Assembly (NCBI GenBank): GCA_035546635.1
Contig: DASZWJ010000019.1
Location: 37,386-101,385, forward strand
From: Gammaproteobacteria bacterium
GTDB lineage: Bacteria > Pseudomonadota > Gammaproteobacteria > JAURND01
Reading direction: 5' to 3'
Length of the DNA stretch: 64,000 nucleotides
Of this stretch, positions 20,932 to 30,896 are shown piece after piece. Position numbers and translations under genes: made by a program. The notes under the pieces were generated by a model that saw only the letters and a list, made by a program, of their open reading frames with translations, made no database searches and was not told where the DNA came from. The stretch's first letter is position 1; each line of letters opens with the position of its first letter.

Positions 20932-20965
20932 TCACCCCCTTTTTCACAGGGGGTGACCCTTTTTA
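20932..20965 (+). terminator. rho-independent terminator hairpin (member of the CCCCTTTTTCAxGGGGG family)
   Basis: A 9-bp stem (TCACCCCCT / AGGGGGTGA) followed by CCCTTTTT. Confidence 0.6.
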
Positions 20966-21886
20966 AGTTTTATGCAATTCTAGCCGCAACAATCCATGCT
21001 CATTTTGTTCTGGCTGTAACCAGCGAACTCCGCCAACAGTATTCATGGCATTAGGATGCCCCATCCACGGTTCAATGCAAATAAAAGGCTGCTCAATCGG
21101 AGTGTAAATCTGAATATACGGAAATAAATCAGGATCTTCGACGCCGCCTGCTGTCATTTCAATGATGTCTCCATTGGGAAAGATCAGCCGAGTAGTTTTA
21201 TCAATGCCTAATTGGGTTAAGCGTTCATTAATATCAGCAGTTATTGTAGTGGGTACAGCGTATAAATCTCTTTCGCCCACTAAATCAGTTAAGGTTTCAT
21301 TATAAGCCAGGCATTTAATAGGGTGAAAGTCTAGAATCACTTTTTCCTTGCCTTGATTAAATGCGGGTGTCGAAAAATACGGGTGAAATCCCGCGTAATA
21401 GGGCATGGGTTTGTCGCTGCGATTAGTGTAGGTTTGGGCGCATAACAAAACGCCGGATTCGATGGTATAGTCTAGCTCTAAAGTAAAATGAAATGGATAA
21501 ACAATCCTTGTTTCTGCATTATCTTCTAGGATTAAAATAATCCGCTTATCGGTATACTCAGCAACCTGCCAAGGGAGTCGCCAAGCAAATCCATGTATGG
21601 GTAATTGGTAATGATGACCATCATAAAAGTAATATCCCTCTTTGCCATAACGTTCTAGTCGGCCACAGGTTGGAAAACAAAAAGGCCAGCCGCCGGTTAA
21701 GCGTGTGAAGTCAGAGTCCCAAAAATATTCGTGCTGAAACAGTAATTCCCGTGGACCCGAATTGCCAGGCATGATAATAGATGAAGCCATGCCGCCGCGT
21801 TCAGGAATAAATGTGGCTTGAGTCGAGCCATCAGGTGAACTGATACTATAGCTTTTACCGATAGGGGTGGTTTTTATTTGAGGCAT
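20963..21886 (-). CDS. aldose 1-epimerase (galactose mutarotase-like) family protein
   Basis: About 307 aa with a mutarotase-like beta-sandwich signature (FHPYF, HGF). Start set at MPQIKT after an AAGGA RBS; the ORF is open to 21916. Confidence 0.55.
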   Translation of the reverse strand: MPQIKTTPIGKSYSISSPDGSTQATFIPERGGMASSIIMPGNSGPRELLFQHEYFWDSDFTRLTGGWPFCFPTCGRLERYGKEGYYFYDGHHYQLPIHGFAWRLPWQVAEYTDKRIILILEDNAETRIVYPFHFTLELDYTIESGVLLCAQTYTNRSDKPMPYYAGFHPYFSTPAFNQGKEKVILDFHPIKCLAYNETLTDLVGERDLYAVPTTITADINERLTQLGIDKTTRLIFPNGDIIEMTAGGVEDPDLFPYIQIYTPIEQPFICIEPWMGHPNAMNTVGGVRWLQPEQNEHGLLRLELHKT

Positions 21887-21932
21887 TTTAGATTTATCCT
21901 TGTGAGATTTTCGCAAGTATTTACTTCTAAGT

Positions 21933-21965
21933 TTTCATCCTGAGCGTAAGAGAAGGATGACAGCT
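21933..21965. repeat. GTCATCCTGAGCG...AAGGATGAC palindromic repeat
   Basis: TTTCATCCTGAGCGTAAGAGAAGGATGACAG, located just upstream of the ilv promoter. Confidence 0.7.
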
Positions 21966-21972
21966 TTTGCGG

Positions 21973-22001
21973 TTGACATTGGTAGCCTATAACTTTAAGA
22001 T
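21973..22001 (+). promoter_or_regulatory. sigma70-like promoter of the ilv leader/operon
   Basis: TTGACA (21973-21978), a 17-nt spacer, then TAAGAT (21996-22001), about 40 nt upstream of the leader ATG. Confidence 0.5.
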
Positions 22002-22038
22002 ACCAAGATTATATACTTCAAATAAATTAGAGTACAAA

Positions 22039-22134
22039 ATGTCTTCATATAAAAACATAGCCATTCGCATTTTTAACCTTATTATCGTGGTGATTCTTAG
22101 TCGCGAGGTGCGGGGCTGTGTCTTGAAACGATAG
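22039..22134 (+). CDS. ilv operon leader peptide (Ile/Val/Leu-rich)
   Basis: 31 aa, MSSYKNIAIRIFNLIIVVILSREVRGCVLKR. The central block has 6 Ile, 2 Val and 2 Leu, and the 31-aa peptide has 3 Val and 4 Leu in total. It sits immediately upstream of the attenuator and ilvB. Confidence 0.75.
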   Translation: MSSYKNIAIRIFNLIIVVILSREVRGCVLKR

Positions 22135-22154
22135 ACGAACAGCAGGGTAAAAGA

Positions 22155-22190
22155 CCCCGCACCTCTTCCAGAGATGCGGGGTTTTTTTTT
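22155..22190 (+). terminator. ilv attenuator (rho-independent terminator)
   Basis: CCCCGCA...TGCGGGG stem followed by a T9 run. Leader segment GAGGTGCGGGG (22105-22115) is perfectly complementary to CCCCGCACCTC (22155-22165), giving a mutually exclusive antiterminator. Confidence 0.8.
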
Positions 22191-22221
22191 GAGCAGAATT
22201 TTTTTTAGTAAGGTGGATCTT

Positions 22222-23919
22222 ATGCAAATGACAGGTGCACAAGCTCTGTTGCAATGCTTATTGCATGAAGGAGTTGACCTTCTATTTGGTTATCCCGGCG
22301 GGGCTATCATGCCCACTTATGATGCTTTGTATGATGTGCGTTCGGAGTTGCGTCATATTCTAGTGCGCCATGAACAAGGTGCAGCGCATGCAGCGCAAGG
22401 TTACGCACGGGTAACAGGTAAGACGGGAGTATGTTTGGTAACTTCTGGGCCGGGAGCCACTAATTTAATTACTGGTATCACCGATGCTATGCTGGATTCT
22501 ACCCCGATTGTTTGTATCACTGGGCAGGTAGCCAGCTCCTTTTTGGGCACTGACGCTTTTCAGGAAGCAGATATTATTGGTATGTCATTGCCCGTCACCA
22601 AATGGAATTATCAAATTACTGATGCAGAAGAAATTCCAAAAGTAGTGGCTAAGGCATTTTATATTGCCCGCCATGGCCGACCCGGTCCGGTACTGATAGA
22701 TATCACGAAAGATGCACAATTTGGTCCATTAAATTTTTCCTATCAAAAATACATACCTGTCGATCCTCCGGTTCATCATCAACCACTTTCACAACAATCA
22801 TTAATTAAAGCAGCTGAGTTAATTAATCAATCGCATCGCCCATATATTTTAGCGGGGCAGGGAGTTTTATTAGCACATGCTGAACAAGAGCTACTAGATT
22901 TTGCAGTGAAAGCCAATATACCGGTTGCTTGTACTTTATTAGGATTGTCGTCATTTCCCATGGATCATCCATTGTATGCGGGAATGCTAGGAATGCATGG
23001 CAATTATGGGTCTAATTTATTAACAAATGAAGCCGATGTCATTATTGCAGTGGGAATGCGTTTTGATGATAGAGTCACGGGTAATTTGGCTAATTATGCC
23101 AAACAAGCCAAAATTATCCATATTGATATTGATCCCGCGGAGATCAATAAAAATGTCCAAGTTGAAGTGGGACTGTTGGCGGATGCTGGATATGCGCTAA
23201 GAGAATTAATGCCTTATTTAGATGGTCAACGCAGCCAGGATTTACATGAAGCTTGGGTAAATCAATTTAAAGAATGTTATCAAACTGAATATGACCAGGT
23301 CATCGTTCATGAAATTCACCCTGATGGTAAAAACATCAAAATGGCAGAAGTCATTCATGAACTATCCAATAAAACAGAAGGTAAAGCCATTTTAGTCACA
23401 GATGTAGGCCAGCATCAAATGGTGGCCGCACGTTATTATCGGTTTATGCAGCATAATTCTTTAGTGACTTCAGGTGGGCTTGGCACCATGGGTTTTGCCT
23501 TGCCAGCGGCAGTGGGCGCCAAACTCGGCGATCCTAACCGGCACGTGATTGCAATTATTGGTGATGGCGGCTTTCAAATGAATATACAAGAACTGGGTGT
23601 TATCTCACAAGAAAACTTGCCAGTGAAAATTATCATACTGAATAATGGCCATTTGGGTATGGTGCGGCAATGGCAGGAATTATTTTTTGAACAACGCTAT
23701 TCATTTGTACAGTTGAAAAATCCTGATTTTATAAAAATTGCTGAGGGTTATGCGATTTCTGGCTGTAGAGTGAAAGACAGTGCTGAATTTCGTTCCGCAC
23801 TGGATACGATGTTAAATTTTGATGGGCCGTATTTGTTAGAAGTGGTTGTGGAAATGGAAGAAAACATTTTCCCTATGGTGCCATCGGGTTGTGGTGTCGG
23901 AGAAGTCCGATTATCTTAA
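22222..23919 (+). CDS. ilvB: acetolactate synthase large subunit (biosynthetic AHAS)
   Basis: ThDP-binding motif (IGDGGFQMN) and FAD-binding middle domain. RBS AAGGTGG precedes it. Confidence 0.95.
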
Positions 23920-23932
23920 GAGGTATGTTTAA

Positions 23933-24190
23933 ATGCAATATATTTATGCAATTTCAGTAGTCACTGAAAATACTTTGCGGGTTTTGCAACGTTTAGCGGG
24001 TATATTTGCGCGTTATCGCTTGAATATTGAACAGATGAATGTCTTTGAAACCGGCAATCGGGGGACTTCGTATTTTAATATTATTGTGCACAGTAATGCT
24101 AAAACCGCAGATCGCGTGATAAAACAGCTGGAAAAAATTTTTGAATTGAAAGAGGTTAAGATAGTCAGTCAGATACCATTGTCATCTTGA
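23933..24190 (+). CDS. ilvN: acetolactate synthase small (regulatory) subunit, short ACT-only form
   Basis: 85-aa ACT domain (ISVVTENTLRVLQRLAGIFARYRLNIEQMNV). Confidence 0.85.
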   Translation: MQYIYAISVVTENTLRVLQRLAGIFARYRLNIEQMNVFETGNRGTSYFNIIVHSNAKTADRVIKQLEKIFELKEVKIVSQIPLSS

Positions 24191-24198
24191 TTCAACCC

Positions 24199-24300
24199 CA
24201 CTCGTCGTTCCGGCATGGATGCCGGGATCCATGTCGCATGGAAAGCGAAACTTTAACTTCCCTGTCAACTGGATTCCGGTATCCATGCCGGGACGACGTA
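24199..24300. repeat. MITE-like element family A, copy 1 (inside the ilv operon between ilvN and ilvC)
   Basis: ~100 bp with ~28-bp terminal inverted repeats CGTCGTTCCGGCATGGATGCCGGGATCC / GGATTCCGGTATCCATGCCGGGACGACG. The core GGAAAGCGAAACTTTAACTTCCCTGTCAACTGGAT is nearly identical to the copy at 41193-41291. Confidence 0.85.
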
Positions 24301-24346
24301 CCAGGGGTACAGCGTTTATTCCCAATAAAACCATAGGAGTTAATTT

Positions 24347-25417
24347 ATGCCAACCATGCAATTTGGTAGTGTTTCTGAAAAAGTAATCACCCGTGAAGAA
24401 TTTCCATTAACTAAAGCTAAAGAAGTATTAAAAGACGAAGTGATTGCTATTATTGGCTATGGCGTACAAGGCCCTGCTCAAGCGCTCAATTTAAGAGATA
24501 GTGGATTTAAAGTAATCATTGGTCAAAGGCAGAATAGCCCTTCTTGGCAACAGGCTATTAAAGATGGCTGGATTCCAGATAAAGATTTATTTAGTATTGA
24601 AGAGGCTTGTGAAAAGGCGACTTTTATTTGTTATCTCTTGTCTGATGCGGCGCAGATTCAAGTATGGCCGACGGTGAAAAAATATTTGACTCCAGGAAAA
24701 ACCCTTTATTTTTCTCATGGTTTTGCTGTGACTTACCATGACCAAACTCAAGTATTACCTCCTAAAGACGTGGATGTCATATTAGTAGCACCTAAAGGTT
24801 CTGGCCGTAGTGTGCGCCGATTATTTTTAGACGGCAAAGGTATTAATTCCAGTTATGCGGTTTTCCAAGATGCTACAGGCAAGGCTGAACAAAAGGCATT
24901 GGCATTTGGCATTGGTGTAGGTTCTGGATACCTATTTCAAACTGATTTTAAGAAAGAAGTTTACAGTGATTTATTCGGAGAACGTGGTGTGTTGATGGGC
25001 GCTTTGGCCGGAGTCATCAAGGCACAATATGAGGTGTTGCGCAAAAATGGTCATTCTCCCACTGAAGCGTTTAATGAAACCGTAGAAGAGCTGACACAAA
25101 GTTTGGTGCCGCTGGTCGGTGAAAATGGCATGGATTGGATGTATGCCAATTGTTCTGCTACTGCACAGCGTGGGGCATTAGATTGGTTGCCAAAATTTCA
25201 GCAGGCGGTATTACCGGTTTTTGAAGCACTTTATAAAAGTGTGGCCGATGGTAGTGAAACGGCGCGGGTGATTGAAGCGAATGGTCAGGCAAATTATAAA
25301 GAAAAATTAAATAAAGAACTTGAGCAAATGCGCAATGAGGAGCTCTGGCAAGTAGGCGCTAAGGTTAGGGCGCTGCGACCGGAGTCGGAGAGTAAGAAAA
25401 GTACTATTACCTCATAA
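24347..25417 (+). CDS. ilvC: ketol-acid reductoisomerase (class I, short form)
   Basis: NADPH Rossmann motif (IAIIGYGVQGPAQALNLRDSG). Length is 356 aa. RBS AGGAG precedes it. Confidence 0.95.
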   Translation: MPTMQFGSVSEKVITREEFPLTKAKEVLKDEVIAIIGYGVQGPAQALNLRDSGFKVIIGQRQNSPSWQQAIKDGWIPDKDLFSIEEACEKATFICYLLSDAAQIQVWPTVKKYLTPGKTLYFSHGFAVTYHDQTQVLPPKDVDVILVAPKGSGRSVRRLFLDGKGINSSYAVFQDATGKAEQKALAFGIGVGSGYLFQTDFKKEVYSDLFGERGVLMGALAGVIKAQYEVLRKNGHSPTEAFNETVEELTQSLVPLVGENGMDWMYANCSATAQRGALDWLPKFQQAVLPVFEALYKSVADGSETARVIEANGQANYKEKLNKELEQMRNEELWQVGAKVRALRPESESKKSTITS

Positions 25418-25435
25418 ATAAGGAGATATTATATT

Positions 25436-25461
25436 TCCTTCTCCCACAAGGGGAGAAGGAT
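25436..25461 (+). promoter_or_regulatory. intercistronic stem-loop after ilvC (no T-run)
   Basis: Hairpin with 9-bp arms (CCTTCTCCC / GGGAGAAGG) around an ACAAG loop. It is related to the CTCCCACAAGG palindromes of the 35.7-kb element. Confidence 0.5.
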
Positions 25462-25488
25462 ATCTGCAAGTAACAAACGGATCACATC

Positions 25489-27285
25489 ATGTATCAACTT
25501 TTAGATTTTGCCACTAAAAAACCAGTAACTCCACGCGGTTTAGTATTCACCGGCGAAGACTCTCCCTGGGAAGTAGTCATGGACATTGCTGCGATTAAAA
25601 AGCAGCTCAATCTGGATTACTTTAAAATCGCTCCACCAGGATTGTCGAAATATTTGCCTTTTATGCCGATTCAGCAAAGTGCTGAATTTATTTCTTTGCG
25701 TGAAACGGCCACGCCGCTTATAAAAAGTAAAACCATAGGTAAATTATTAGGTTTAGATTTATATTTCAAAGTTGAGGGAAAAAATACCACCGGTTCATTT
25801 AAAGATCGGGGCTCGGCGGTGGATATTTCTGTCGCGCGCGAATTTGGCGCAAGTAGTATTATTTTAGCTTCAACAGGTAATATGGCTGCTTCCTGCGCTT
25901 GTTATGCAGCCGCAGCAAAAATTCCATGCTTTATTTTGGTGCCAGAAGGTGTTGCGGTAGCCAAGTTGGCACAGGTGATTGCTTTTGGCGGACGTATTGT
26001 GCAAATCAAAGGTCATTATAATGACGCAGCACGTCTAGCGGAATCTCTTGCCGAAAAAATGGGATTTTATTTGGCGGGGGATTACGCTTATCGTGTTGAA
26101 GGACAAAAAACCGCCGCCTTTGAAATTATTGACCAATTATTTTTTCAGCCACCTGATCTGGTGGTCGTTCCCATTGGTTGTGGCACTAATATTACCGCCT
26201 ATAAAAAAGGCTTTAGTGAATATCGAGAGTTGGGTTTAATCGATAAAATACCACAATTGATGGGCGTAGAAGCTGAAGGTGCGGCGGCGGTGGTCAATAG
26301 TTTTGAAAAGCATGTCACGACTATTCAACCATTGGAAAGCGCTAATACCATTGCTACGGCTATCGCTGTGCCCAATCCTTTAGATGGCATAAAAGCTTTA
26401 GATGCGATTTATTCAACCGGTGGCAGTGCAGTGGCTGTTAGTGACCAGGAAATTTTACAAGCACAATATTTGTTATCAACTGAAGAAGGCTTGTTTGTTG
26501 AAAGTGCTGCTGCAGCTACCGTTGCCGCATTGCTTAAAGCGGGTCGCCAGCAAAAACTTGTTTCTGGCAAGGTAGTCTGCGTTTTAACTGGTGATGGGCT
26601 TAAAGATGCGAATGTGGTGTTAAAAGCCGCAATTAAACCGCCAACTATTTACCCGGATGAAAAAGCTTTTCTTTCGTTATATCAGAATAATTTCTTCAAA
26701 GGCAAGAGCATGATTTTTGTGGATAAAAATCAAGTGCTGTTTGCATCCGAACCGAGTATTTCCCAAATCAAAGAACAACTCGCTTTGCTGTTTGAGGCAG
26801 ATTATTCAGAAGAATATTTACTGAAAATTAAATCCATTCTTGGAAAATTTTTGCAAAAAGGTAAGGCGGTTACCGTTTCGGATTTTCAAGATTGCATACA
26901 AGATGCTTTAGAAACACCACAAAATAAACCGCAAGAAACCTTTGCGGTGGTAGATTTTGAAGTGACTACAGGCAAAGACCGTGCATCTGTAGCTTCGGTA
27001 ACGATAAAAATTGACGATAAAGAGCATAAAGCTACTGCTCAAGGGGTAGGTCCAGTAGATGCCGTGATTAGCGCTTTGACACATGCCTGTGCCGAAAGAA
27101 TTGTTTTTACTCTAACAGATTATAAAGTAGATATCCGCAGCCAAGGTGTTGATGCAGTGGTTTATGTGGAATTAAAGTTGGCCAAAGATCATTTTTATTC
27201 TTTGGGTCGAGGAACTTCACCGGATATTATTCAGGCTTCTATTGAGGCATTTGAAGAGGCGTATAATGGTTTTGTGGTAGCTTAA
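25489..27285 (+). CDS. threonine-synthase-like PLP enzyme fused to a C-terminal LeuA_dimer (IPMS/citramalate-synthase allosteric) domain
   Basis: Residues ~60-400 match short-type ThrC (GKNTTGSFKDRGSAV, RVEGQKTAAFEI, GCGTNITAY, TIATAIAV, TGDGLKD). Residues ~480-598 match the LeuA C-terminal regulatory domain (AQGVGPVDAV, SQGVDAVVYVEL, GRGTSPDIIQASIEAFEEAYN). An alternative start at 25579 (MDIAAIK, after GGGAAG) is possible. Confidence 0.85.
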   Translation: MYQLLDFATKKPVTPRGLVFTGEDSPWEVVMDIAAIKKQLNLDYFKIAPPGLSKYLPFMPIQQSAEFISLRETATPLIKSKTIGKLLGLDLYFKVEGKNTTGSFKDRGSAVDISVAREFGASSIILASTGNMAASCACYAAAAKIPCFILVPEGVAVAKLAQVIAFGGRIVQIKGHYNDAARLAESLAEKMGFYLAGDYAYRVEGQKTAAFEIIDQLFFQPPDLVVVPIGCGTNITAYKKGFSEYRELGLIDKIPQLMGVEAEGAAAVVNSFEKHVTTIQPLESANTIATAIAVPNPLDGIKALDAIYSTGGSAVAVSDQEILQAQYLLSTEEGLFVESAAAATVAALLKAGRQQKLVSGKVVCVLTGDGLKDANVVLKAAIKPPTIYPDEKAFLSLYQNNFFKGKSMIFVDKNQVLFASEPSISQIKEQLALLFEADYSEEYLLKIKSILGKFLQKGKAVTVSDFQDCIQDALETPQNKPQETFAVVDFEVTTGKDRASVASVTIKIDDKEHKATAQGVGPVDAVISALTHACAERIVFTLTDYKVDIRSQGVDAVVYVELKLAKDHFYSLGRGTSPDIIQASIEAFEEAYNGFVVA

Positions 27286-27332
27286 ATAATGAGAATGAAA
27301 ATTCTAAATCTTTTAAAAATAATACATTCACT

Positions 27333-28283
27333 ATGATATCCAAAATCGAAAAAACATTTCCGCTAGTGATTATTGTTGTGTCTGCACTGGCTATCTTTTC
27401 TCCCGAATTATTTCTTTGGATAAAACCCCATATCCCCATGTTTTTAGGCATAGTCATGTTCTCAATAGGCTTAACTCTGGAAACAGGTGATTTTGTTAAG
27501 GTGTTTAGTCTACGCTGGCAAATCGCAGCATTAGCAATACTTAAATATCTTATCATGCCGATTTTAGCTTATCTTATTGCCGTAGTATTTGGTCTATCGC
27601 AAACGGATTTTATGGGTTTGATAATCATTAGCGCTTGTCCTGGCGGCACTGCTGCGGCTGTCATGTCTTATTTATCCAAATCAAATGTTGTGTTGACTGT
27701 GGTACTCACATTGTTAACAACCTTATTGTCTCCCATTGTCACACCTATCATTATTTATGTATTTTTGCATAAATATGTACCCATCCCATTAACACAGATT
27801 GCCAGCACGATATTTTGGATTGTCTTATTTCCGTTATTTGACGGCTTAGTTTTAAGAAGATTATTGGGTAAAAAAGTCGAGGCGATCAAACCGGTTTTGC
27901 CTTTGGTATCCATGACAGCGATAACCTTATTGATCGCGTGTATAGTAGCAATGAATCACCAAAACATCCTGGCTTTACCATTTCTGGCAGGATTTGCCGT
28001 TCTAACAGACAATCTTTTGGGATTGACTATTGGTTACAGCATTGCCAAAAAACTCTTTGGTTTTAATGCTAAAAATTGCCGTTCAGTGGCCTTTGAATTT
28101 GGTATTTTGGATACAGGCATGGCGGTAGTCTTGGCAACTAAATTTTTTGGAGTTGCCACAGCACTTTGTGGTGCCTTGTTCAGTGCAATTCAGAATGTGA
28201 CTGGCGCGTGTTTGGTCAGAGTATTGCAAAGTGATAGCCAGCATCTAAATATACGGAGGAAAGATCATGAGGCAACTCAATAA
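27333..28283 (+). CDS. bile acid:sodium symporter (BASS/SBF) family transporter
   Basis: 316 aa with ~9-10 TM segments and the BASS fold ([14 protein letters not shown]). It overlaps the ilvD start by 17 nt. Confidence 0.7.
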
Positions 28284-29949
28284 ATATAGCGCGCATATTA
28301 CCCAACCCCGTTCGCAGGGTGCATCGCAAGCGATGTTATACGCAACTGGTTTGACGGAAACTGATCTGAATAAACCTCAAGTTGGCATAGCCAGCATGTG
28401 GTATGAAGGCAACCCCTGCAATATGCACCTGCAGGATTTAGCCAATATTGTCAAACAAGGGGTACAGGCAGCGGATATGGTGGGTATGCGTTTTAATACC
28501 ATTGGTGTGAGCGATGGTATCTCCATGGGTACGGAAGGCATGCGTTTTTCACTGCAATCACGTGATCTCATTGCTGATTCAATTGAAACGGTAATGAGTG
28601 CGCAGTGGTATGATGGATTGATTACCTTGCCAGGCTGTGACAAAAACATGCCGGGTTGTTTGATTGCTATGGGACGTTTAAACCGTCCGAGTCTGATGAT
28701 ATATGGCGGTACTATTAAAGCAGGTAAATTGGGTAAAGAATCACTGGATATTGTTTCTGCCTTTCAATGTTATGGTGAATATTTAAGTGGCAGAATCGAT
28801 GATAATCAGCGTAAAGCCATTATTCAACACGCTTGCCCAGGTGCTGGTGCCTGTGGCGGAATGTATACCGCGAATACCATGGCTTGCGCCATTGAAGCCT
28901 TAGGAATGAGTCTACCTTACAGCTCCTCTATGCCGGCCATCTCCGCCGAAAAACATCAGGAATGTCTGACAGCAGGTGCCGCAATGCGTTTACTGCTAGA
29001 ACGTGATATCAAACCGCGAGATATCATGACACGTAAAGCGTTTGAAAATGCTGTGGTATTAGTGATTGCTCTGGGCGGTTCCACCAATGCCGTTTTACAC
29101 TTGATTGCAATGGCGCGCACCGTCGATGTGTCGCTAACGTTGGATGATTTTCAGACCATCAGTGCACGTACCCCGCTGTTGGCGGATTTTAAACCCAGTG
29201 GTCATTTTGAAATGGAAGATTTGCACCAATATGGCGGTACTCCGGCGGTGATGAAAATGCTGCTGGAAGCGGGATACTTACATGGTGATTGTTTAACGGT
29301 GACGGGTAAAACCCTGGCTGAAAATTTAGCATCACTACCTGGGTTATCTAAAGGACAGCCAATTATTCACTCGTTAGATCACCCGCTGAAATCAACGGGA
29401 CATTTGAGAATTTTATATGGCAATCTTGCAGAAAAAGGCGCTGTGGCTAAAATTACCGGTAAGGAAGGATTACGTTTCAGCGGCCCCGCCCGAGTATTTG
29501 ACTCAGAAGATGATATGGTTCATGCTCTTGAAGAAAAAAAGATTAATAAAGGCGATGTGGTGGTCATCCGTTACTGTGGTCCTAAAGGCGGTCCTGGTAT
29601 GCCAGAAATGTTGAAGCCTACTTCGGCGATTATGGGGGCAGGTTTAGGCAAAGATGTGGCCTTGATTACAGATGGTCGTTTTTCCGGTGGTTCGCACGGA
29701 TTTATTGTTGGCCATATCTGTCCTGAAGCTCAGGTAGGCGGTGTGATTGCCCTGATTCAAGAGGGCGATCGTATTGAAATTGACGCTGAAAATAATACCT
29801 TAACCGTGGATGTGAGTGAGGCGGAATTAAATGCACGGCGTGCCAAGTGGGTGATGCCGTCTTATAAAGTGACGCAGGGCACTTTGTATAAATATATTAA
29901 GAATGTTGCATCAGCCCAATTAGGCTGTGTCACTGATGAAAATGTATAG
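28267..29949 (+). CDS. ilvD: dihydroxy-acid dehydratase
   Basis: IlvD/EDD motifs ([33 protein letters not shown]). Confidence 0.95.
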
Positions 29950-29958
29950 GAGAAATGC

Positions 29959-30861
29959 ATGCAAACAACTGAATCTATCTGGTTCAATGGCAAAATGGTT
30001 CCCTGGGATGAGGCGAAAGTTCATGTGCTGACCCATAGCTTACATTATGGTGGTGGTGCATTTGAAGGCATACGCTTCTATAAAACCCCTAAAGGTACAG
30101 CGATTTTTAAATTGAAAGAGCACATTAAGCGCTTATTATATTCAGCCGGTGCGTTAAAAATGTCTTTACCTTATTCCCAAAAAGATATTGAAGCTGCGGC
30201 CATTGAAGTCGTGCGGATTAATAAATTGGAAGAAGGATATATTCGACCAATTATCTTTTTTGGCTATGGCAAAATGGGCGTCAATCCCGTGGGCAGTCCT
30301 GTCGATATTGCGATTGCTTGTTGGCCTTGGGGCGCTTATTTGCCGCATGATGCAGTCGATATTAAAACCAGCGAATTTATTCGTATTCATCCAGACTCCA
30401 CGATAGTAGATGCGAAACTAACCGGACATTATTTAAATGGTATTTTGGCGTCACTTGCCATACAGGGTACGCATTACCATGAGGTATTATTTTTGGATAG
30501 CGAAGATTTTATTTCCGAAGGTGGCGGTGAGAATTTTTTCATTGTTAAAGATGGCGTGTTGTACACCCCGCAGTTGGGTACGATCTTAGCTGGTATCACA
30601 CGAGAAACCATTATGCAGCTCGCTCAAGATATGGGTATAAAAGTAGTGCAGAAAAATATTACCCTGGATGAAGCTTATGCAGCGGATGAGGCATTTTTTA
30701 CGGGTACGGCTGCAGAAGTGACGGCAATTCGTTCTATTGATGACAAAGCAATCGGTGCGGTGCAACCAGGTTCGGTGACGACGCGGATCAAAACGGCTTA
30801 TATGGATTTGGTACATGGTGGGAATCCTAAATATGCGGAAAGTTTGACTTATGTTAAGTGA
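29959..30861 (+). CDS. ilvE: branched-chain amino acid aminotransferase (class IV)
   Basis: Fold-type IV motifs (LHYGGGAFEGIRFY, EGGGENFFIV). Confidence 0.9.
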   Translation: MQTTESIWFNGKMVPWDEAKVHVLTHSLHYGGGAFEGIRFYKTPKGTAIFKLKEHIKRLLYSAGALKMSLPYSQKDIEAAAIEVVRINKLEEGYIRPIIFFGYGKMGVNPVGSPVDIAIACWPWGAYLPHDAVDIKTSEFIRIHPDSTIVDAKLTGHYLNGILASLAIQGTHYHEVLFLDSEDFISEGGGENFFIVKDGVLYTPQLGTILAGITRETIMQLAQDMGIKVVQKNITLDEAYAADEAFFTGTAAEVTAIRSIDDKAIGAVQPGSVTTRIKTAYMDLVHGGNPKYAESLTYVK

Positions 30862-30896
30862 AGAGCCGCTGTCATTATCTTAGGAAAAAAGTAACG

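Follow-up and report, generated by a model that had tools for sequence, protein, structure and literature searches.

The region upstream of ilvB in the window, the whole 64,000-nucleotide stretch of DNA that we analyzed, very probably encodes a ribosome-mediated (leader-peptide) transcription attenuator controlling the ilvBNC-...-ilvDE operon. An earlier note on this DNA had proposed a textbook attenuator of this kind in front of ilvB, and the layout, the codon run, the predicted helices, and their conservation supported the proposal; its dependence on tRNA charging we infer. The elements of the leader all sit 32 nt upstream of ilvB (22222-23919), each at, or at most one base away from, its previously noted position.

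A sigma-70-like promoter on the plus strand (21973-22001) precedes the leader, as the earlier note had described. Its -35 box TTGACA (21973-21978) and -10 box TAAGAT (21996-22001) are separated by a 17-nt spacer and match 10 of the 12 consensus positions. When 18 kb were scanned (21900-39900), this site attained the joint best score, and the gap upstream of ilvB holds no second promoter-like site of such a score. Transcription is predicted to start around 22008, about 30 nt 5' of the leader open reading frame (ORF). The gene upstream, encoding an aldose-epimerase-like protein (20963-21916), lies divergently on the minus strand, so the plus-strand terminator found here cannot end another gene.

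Between the promoter-like site and ilvB lies one short ORF that could be translated. It comprises 31 codons followed by TAG (22039-22134, plus strand; ATG at 22039, stop codon at 22132) and would give the peptide MSSYKNIAIRIFNLIIVVILSREVRGCVLKR. The Shine-Dalgarno-like GAG ahead of its ATG (22030-22032) is weak. Six Ile, four Val, and three Leu codons account for 13 of the 31 codons, and seven of them are consecutive, forming the regulatory codon run CTT ATT ATC GTG GTG ATT CTT (L I I V V I L) at 22078-22098 on the plus strand; more Ile codons start at 22057, 22063, and 22069. With all six frames counted, no other of the 520 ATG-started ORFs of 15-60 amino acids (aa) in the window has an I/L/V run of at least seven residues, and when the ORF body was shuffled 20000 times, such a run arose 14 times. 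This ORF and its codon run had been pointed out before, as had their absence from the ORF track: gene callers indeed miss the 31-codon ORF, and every Rfam model misses the RNA.

The leader ends in an intrinsic terminator (22153-22190, plus strand), in which a hairpin (22155-22181) is followed by nine T residues (T9; 22182-22190). The stem, CCCCGCA / C.A mismatch / CUCU-UCC-AGAG / UGCGGGG, is made of 7 bp, the mismatch, and 4 bp with a UCC loop. ViennaRNA gave -20.3 kcal/mol for the hairpin (z = -5.5), and none of 200 shuffles was as stable, in agreement with the GC stem and T9 terminator recognized earlier. A simple terminator scanner passed over the hairpin at 22155-22181 because it needs an uninterrupted stem, and this stem has an internal mismatch; ViennaRNA and the consensus fold of ten homologues recovered it. 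A second T run (22199-22206), T8 in the window and T7 at the equivalent place in the relatives L203 and L204, sits 8-10 nt past the T9 tract and before the ribosome-binding site (RBS) of ilvB. This RBS, AAGGTGGA, occupies 22210-22217, and the ilvB ATG is at 22222. Translational control of ilvB was considered as well and rejected, as the RBS lies 29 nt past the end of the hairpin and is clear of it.

The alternative 1:2, 2:3, and 3:4 pairings suspected earlier were recovered by RNA folding as three mutually exclusive helices, predicted at about -22, -29, and -20 kcal/mol, respectively. Segment 3 (CCCCGCACCUC; 22155-22165, plus strand) serves the antiterminator as its 3' strand and the terminator as its 5' arm, and these two structures are mutually exclusive because the segment is common to both. 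Segment 2 (22102-22122, plus strand) can pair either with segment 1 or, via its core GAGGUGCGGGG (22105-22115), with segment 3. At the DNA level, GAGGTGCGGGG (22105-22115) and CCCCGCACCTC (22155-22165) are exact reverse complements over 11 bp, which confirms the perfect complementarity noticed previously between the leader codons and the 5' arm of the terminator. The 2:3 antiterminator hairpin is predicted at -29.4 kcal/mol (z = -4.8).

Segment 1 (22054-22090, plus strand), the 5' strand of the anti-antiterminator, has three parts, ACAUAGCC, UCGCAUU, and UCGUG, which pair with GGCUGUGU, a GGUGCGG-type sequence, and CGCGA, respectively. RNAduplex gave -23.4 kcal/mol for this pairing (22054-22090 : 22102-22122). 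As a hairpin, 1:2 reached -22.1 kcal/mol (z = -2.4), a modest excess over shuffles, 3 of 200 of which were as stable. The 1:2 helix spans the regulatory codons, which overlap its 5' strand. The minimum free energy (MFE) structure of the whole leader (22030-22195) consists of a long interrupted 1:2 helix and the terminator (z = -4.4).

To represent translation, we modeled the ribosome as an unpaired footprint of 30 nt centered on each codon in turn. With the transcript extending to just before the 3' arm of the terminator, the 11-bp antiterminator formed when the A site was on codons 1-17, a range that takes in I7, I9, and I11 as well as L14, I15, I16, and V17, and segment 2 was masked when the ribosome was on codons 22-30. 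The MFE structure of the full-length transcript always kept the terminator, as in classical attenuators; the choice between the helices would therefore be made kinetically, in line with the classical model. Once the ribosome has reached the stop codon, segment 2 is newly exposed behind it, and naive thermodynamics still permits 2:3 pairing. We take 2:3 pairing across the ribosome at this position to be probably excluded, by steric reasoning and the re-formation of 1:2 rather than by calculation; about 30 of the 39 nucleotides in the loop would lie inside the ribosome, and segment 1 would again be free to pair with segment 2.

The arrangement suggests the following course of events. Transcription would start about 30 nt upstream of the 31-codon leader ORF. 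When charged Ile-, Val-, and Leu-tRNAs are ample, the ribosome would pass segment 2 and reach the stop codon at 22132, where segment 2 would either lie under the ribosome or be left behind it and pair again with segment 1. Segment 3 would then pair with segment 4, and RNA polymerase would terminate at T9 (22182-22190) before ilvB. When charged tRNA is scarce, the ribosome would stall on the Ile codons at 22057-22071 or on the run at 22078-22098 and cover segment 1, and the core of segment 2 would pair with segment 3 once the latter is transcribed. Formation of 2:3 would block the terminator and let transcription run into ilvB. Without any translation, 1:2 and 3:4 would both form, resulting in termination. 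Leader translation, kinetic coupling, and the response to tRNA charging, like the start of transcription, we infer from the sequence.

An IlvB identical to that of the window occurs in two Logan assemblies. Relatives were sought in a large protein collection, where IlvB matches had 86, 85, 80, 75, and 73-70% identity, and ten contigs were fetched. Directly upstream of ilvB, seven of the ten (L203, L204, L206, L208, L209, L210, and L211) carry a homologous leader and terminator. With L001, a contig from GTDB that also has a homologous leader, there are eight such relatives, whose IlvB is 62-86% identical to that of the window. L212 has a divergent version of the leader, and the leader is absent upstream of ilvB in L205 and L207. 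Less similar I/L/V leaders with terminators are found ahead of ilvB in L002, L004, L008, L039, and L047. The nearest IlvB among GTDB representatives, with 57-64% identity, are mostly from Bacteroidota, where ilvB comes without such a leader. Other IlvB matches, at 66-67%, include Legionella brunensis (66%) and a Rhabdochlamydia metagenome-assembled genome (MAG). The ilvB phylogeny may depart from the species tree. Ahead of the leader, the neighboring genes vary from one locus to another among the relatives, and the element therefore travels with ilvB. L203 and L204 have a TTGACA-17-TAAAAT promoter at the equivalent place, and L206, L209, L210, and L211 have a TTGACA box.

Two of these contigs have further differences downstream. 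An alpha-acetolactate decarboxylase gene follows ilvBNC in L204 (5909-6698). At 4538-6399 of L205, one of the contigs without the leader, ilvBN is followed by a gene for an ankyrin-repeat protein with a faint T4SS_AnkD hit and not by ilvC; this neighbor hints at a host-associated, Legionellales-like lineage.

Every homologue of the leader ORF retains the start, the stop, and an almost pure I/L/V run, within which codons swap inside the class, apart from one Ala. Runs in the window and its relatives read, for example, LIIVVIL, LIVVVIL, IIIAIII, VLVVILI, LVLVVLII, LIVVVLII, IIIVVVI, and LLLVVVII. Such a run, kept while its codons change, argues for selection on the class of codon. The segment-2 sequence GAGGTGCGG encodes E-V-R in the window, L203, and L204 (E-M-R in L206), and lies one base out of this frame in L208-L211 and L001, where it encodes R-C-G. 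Conservation of the segment-2 nucleotides in differing frames argues for selection on the RNA and not on the peptide.

The pairing was also assessed in an ungapped alignment (A2) of the three pairing segments from 12 loci, which was built because the MAFFT alignment (A1) had slid the window row by 1-2 bases at the terminator. As A2 was anchored by hand on the proposed pairing, it is biased toward the structure under test. In A2, 86.4% of the antiterminator positions were paired across the 12 sequences, and 4 of the 11 pairs had changed on both sides, figures that are indicative only, given 12 sequences with most pairs invariant. Compensatory examples are G-C to A-U in L206 and L210 and U-A to C-G in L004. 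Sliding the partners by 1-3 columns lowered the antiterminator pairing to 34-53%, and none of 500 shuffles matched the observed pairing or covariation score, although relatedness by itself can lift sequences above shuffles in the absence of structure. The lower stem of the terminator was 97.6% paired in A2, with two compensatory pairs. RNAalifold on the plain MAFFT alignment recovered the terminator in all ten sequences, together with a small hairpin between the Val codons and the 5' flank of segment 2. Duplexes resembling 1:2, of -15 to -25 kcal/mol, were found in eight relatives, and in six relatives the transcript cut before the 3' arm folded into 2:3 even without a ribosome.

Database searches placed the element in no catalogued family. 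Over the whole window, only a tRNA reached its Rfam gathering score. At a permissive threshold (E ≤ 10), Rfam gave 21 matches, none with E < 0.04 and none to a T-box or riboswitch. The best sub-threshold matches were Leu_leader (RF00512; 18.5 bits against a gathering score of 50) and Thr_leader (RF00506; 18.6 against 55). These families have the layout of a leader ORF region, a GC stem, and a U tract in common with the element, which, scoring below gathering, is a member of neither; the Thr_leader match spans the terminator hairpin only. A blastn search (word size 11) with the leader against 5,426 E. coli genomes returned no match at E ≤ 1. In metagenomes, the pattern AGGTGCGGGG N{25,55} CCCCGCACCT was found at 120 loci, all of them generic self-complementary hairpins and none adjoining ilvB, and is too unspecific for the leader.

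We considered whether something other than a ribosome-sensing attenuator could account for these observations. One alternative is that the ORF, lying beside ilvB by chance, specifies a small hydrophobic peptide of the membrane or a toxin and has a promoter and a terminator of its own, which would fit the 14-residue hydrophobic core IAIRIFNLIIVVIL and the terminator that follows it. Across the relatives, however, the ORF stays linked to ilvB and to no upstream neighbor. Its run is almost exclusively I, L, and V, whereas a transmembrane helix would tolerate F, A, M, G, and W too. Moreover, the C-terminal peptide is not conserved and its frame shifts among relatives while the nucleotides are kept, and a free-standing gene would have no need for leader codons perfectly complementary to the terminator arm. 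We therefore give hardly any credence to this explanation. Scarcely less improbable is a constitutive partial terminator or a hairpin stabilizing the 5' untranslated region, in which nothing switches and the complementarity is a by-product of the GC-rich palindromic repeats of this genome. Long GC-rich inverted repeats do occupy several gaps of the window (for instance, 24203-24298 and 43618-43747), and the metagenome scan brought up hairpins of the AGGTGCGGGG...CCCCGCACCT type at many unrelated places. Against this, the leader segments are not copies of the other repeats in the window, and both the 1:2/2:3/3:4 complementarity and the I/L/V ORF are conserved, with compensatory changes, where IlvB is 62-86% identical.

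The helices could also belong to a real switch with a non-ribosomal sensor, such as an RNA-binding protein, uncharged tRNA in a T-box-like manner, or a small molecule bound by a riboswitch, the ORF being incidental. Alternative helices alone do not name their sensor, and in the similar-looking ilvB leader of Streptomyces coelicolor, substitutions of the regulatory codons were without effect (PMC1262725). We nonetheless judge such a sensor unlikely here. Rfam yielded no family below E = 0.04, T-boxes and riboswitches included, and the relatives have no conserved unpaired core resembling an aptamer; what is conserved is the pairing segments and, in every homologue, an ORF with the run, start, and stop. 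Furthermore, the overlap of the run with segment 1 falls at the very place at which a stalled ribosome would act. The ribosome-mediated attenuator thus remains our preferred reading.

Control of this kind has well-studied counterparts. The ilvBN leader of E. coli is rich in Val and Leu and is not known to contain Ile, and ilvB is additionally dependent on cAMP-CRP in that organism. The present leader resembles E. coli ivbL in its position upstream of ilvB, its logic, and its intrinsic terminator with an alternative antiterminator, and is dominated by Ile and Val; it differs from ivbL in peptide and in DNA, where blastn detects no similarity. The two are near-equal in size, with 32 aa and 11 branched-chain amino acid (BCAA) codons in the E. 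coli ilvBN leader (PMC6123439) and 31 aa and 13 codons here. The ilvGMEDA leader of E. coli encodes a 32-aa peptide with 15 BCAA (PMC6123439). Like the element described here, this leader (ilvL) of E. coli and Salmonella mixes Ile, Val, and Leu codons for multivalent control and precedes an operon with ilvD and ilvE, but the first gene and the operon order are different and there is no sequence similarity. In E. coli, ribosome-mediated attenuation of ilvBN, ilvGMEDA, and leu is well established, and BCAA leaders are predicted widely in Gram-negatives (PMC6123439, with reference to Friden et al. 1982 and Vitreschak et al. 2004).

Outside the Gram-negatives, I/L/V leaders with terminators have been described ahead of ilvB in Actinobacteria and Firmicutes (PMC1262725, PMC10272879, PMC11857589, PMC5794164). 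The three-hairpin attenuator of Corynebacterium ilvBNC, the ilvB-II upstream ORF, and the ilv-leu attenuator of S. aureus have in common with our element a short I/L/V-rich ORF and a terminator upstream of ilvB. They nevertheless belong to independent lineages with unrelated sequences, and some actinobacterial ilvB leaders depart from classical attenuation (PMC1262725). The control proposed here is thus of an ordinary, well-understood type, and by its sequence the element is an independent family, uncatalogued in Rfam, from an uncultured gammaproteobacterial lineage.

The first gene under the proposed control is ilvB (22222-23919, plus strand), which encodes the large subunit of acetolactate synthase (TIGR00118, 722 bits; cutoff 538). 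It is followed by ilvN, ilvC, a gene for a PALP+LeuA_dimer protein, an SBF-family transporter gene, ilvD, and ilvE, and then by aroA, aroK, aroFGH, aroB, and a gene for a solute-binding protein; after a gap of 257 nt come aroC, tyrA, and an aminotransferase gene. The absence of leu genes from the cluster agrees with the prevalence of Ile (6) and Val (4) codons in the leader. From the SBF transporter to the solute-binding protein (27333-35649, plus strand), the reading frames overlap or nearly abut, with gaps of at most 9 nt. This spacing suggests that 27333-35649 may be transcribed as one unit downstream of the BCAA leader, in which genes for branched-chain and for aromatic amino acids would be joined.

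Two further observations concern products of the operon. The small subunit of acetolactate synthase, encoded by ilvN (23933-24190, plus strand), has 85 aa and a single ACT domain, and its TIGR00119 score (42 bits) is below the cutoff of 56.9. A short ilvN is kept in all relatives, with 85-88 aa but 111 aa in L209. The PALP+LeuA_dimer gene (25489-27285, plus strand), within the ilv operon, encodes a 598-aa fusion of a ThrC-like, PLP-dependent PALP domain (residues 68-368), scoring above the TIGR00260 cutoff for threonine synthase, with a LeuA_dimer domain (residues 461-594). The same architecture likewise follows ilvC in L206 and L207, and a literature search for this fusion found nothing specific. 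From its domains, the fusion may be a feedback-regulated supplier of 2-oxobutyrate in place of IlvA.

The 156-nt gap between ilvN and ilvC contains a GC-rich inverted repeat (24203-24298) that has 41-nt arms, folds at a predicted -75.8 kcal/mol (z = -8.6), and lacks a T tract. A REP/MITE-like element is one possibility; another is a hairpin that processes or stabilizes the mRNA inside the operon. Other long GC-rich inverted repeats lie in intergenic gaps at 19584-19707, 35677-35866, 41164-41319, and 43585-43777 of the window, which has 41% GC. The arms at 41164-41319 have the motif GTCGTCCC/GGGACGAC in common with the ilvN-ilvC element. One of the repeats in these intergenic gaps has perfect 30-nt arms, TGTCATTCCCGCGCAGGCGGGAACCCATCC, which we take to resemble the REP/RS3-type palindromic repeats of proteobacteria.

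The finding leaves the understanding of attenuation itself unchanged, and what is mildly new is that aromatic-pathway genes may be co-transcribed behind a leader that would sense BCAA supply. It is conceivable, though we hold it to be doubtful, that the element represents a conserved ilvB-leader RNA family absent from Rfam, present in uncultured, Legionellales-like gammaproteobacterial MAGs and a few other lineages (L001), which heads here an ilvB-to-aro unit (22222-35649) with ilvD-ilvE running gapless into aroA-aroK-aroFGH-aroB, so that the charging of Ile-, Val-, and Leu-tRNA would also gate the aromatic genes. A new family model could be built from the ten aligned homologues. Many host-associated Legionellales, which are related to these organisms, are BCAA auxotrophs. 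The leader points to an uncultured gammaproteobacterial lineage that would exert an enterobacterial-style, ribosome-sensing control over its BCAA pathway, and co-transcription of the aro genes, if it occurs, would link two amino-acid pathways through the leader.
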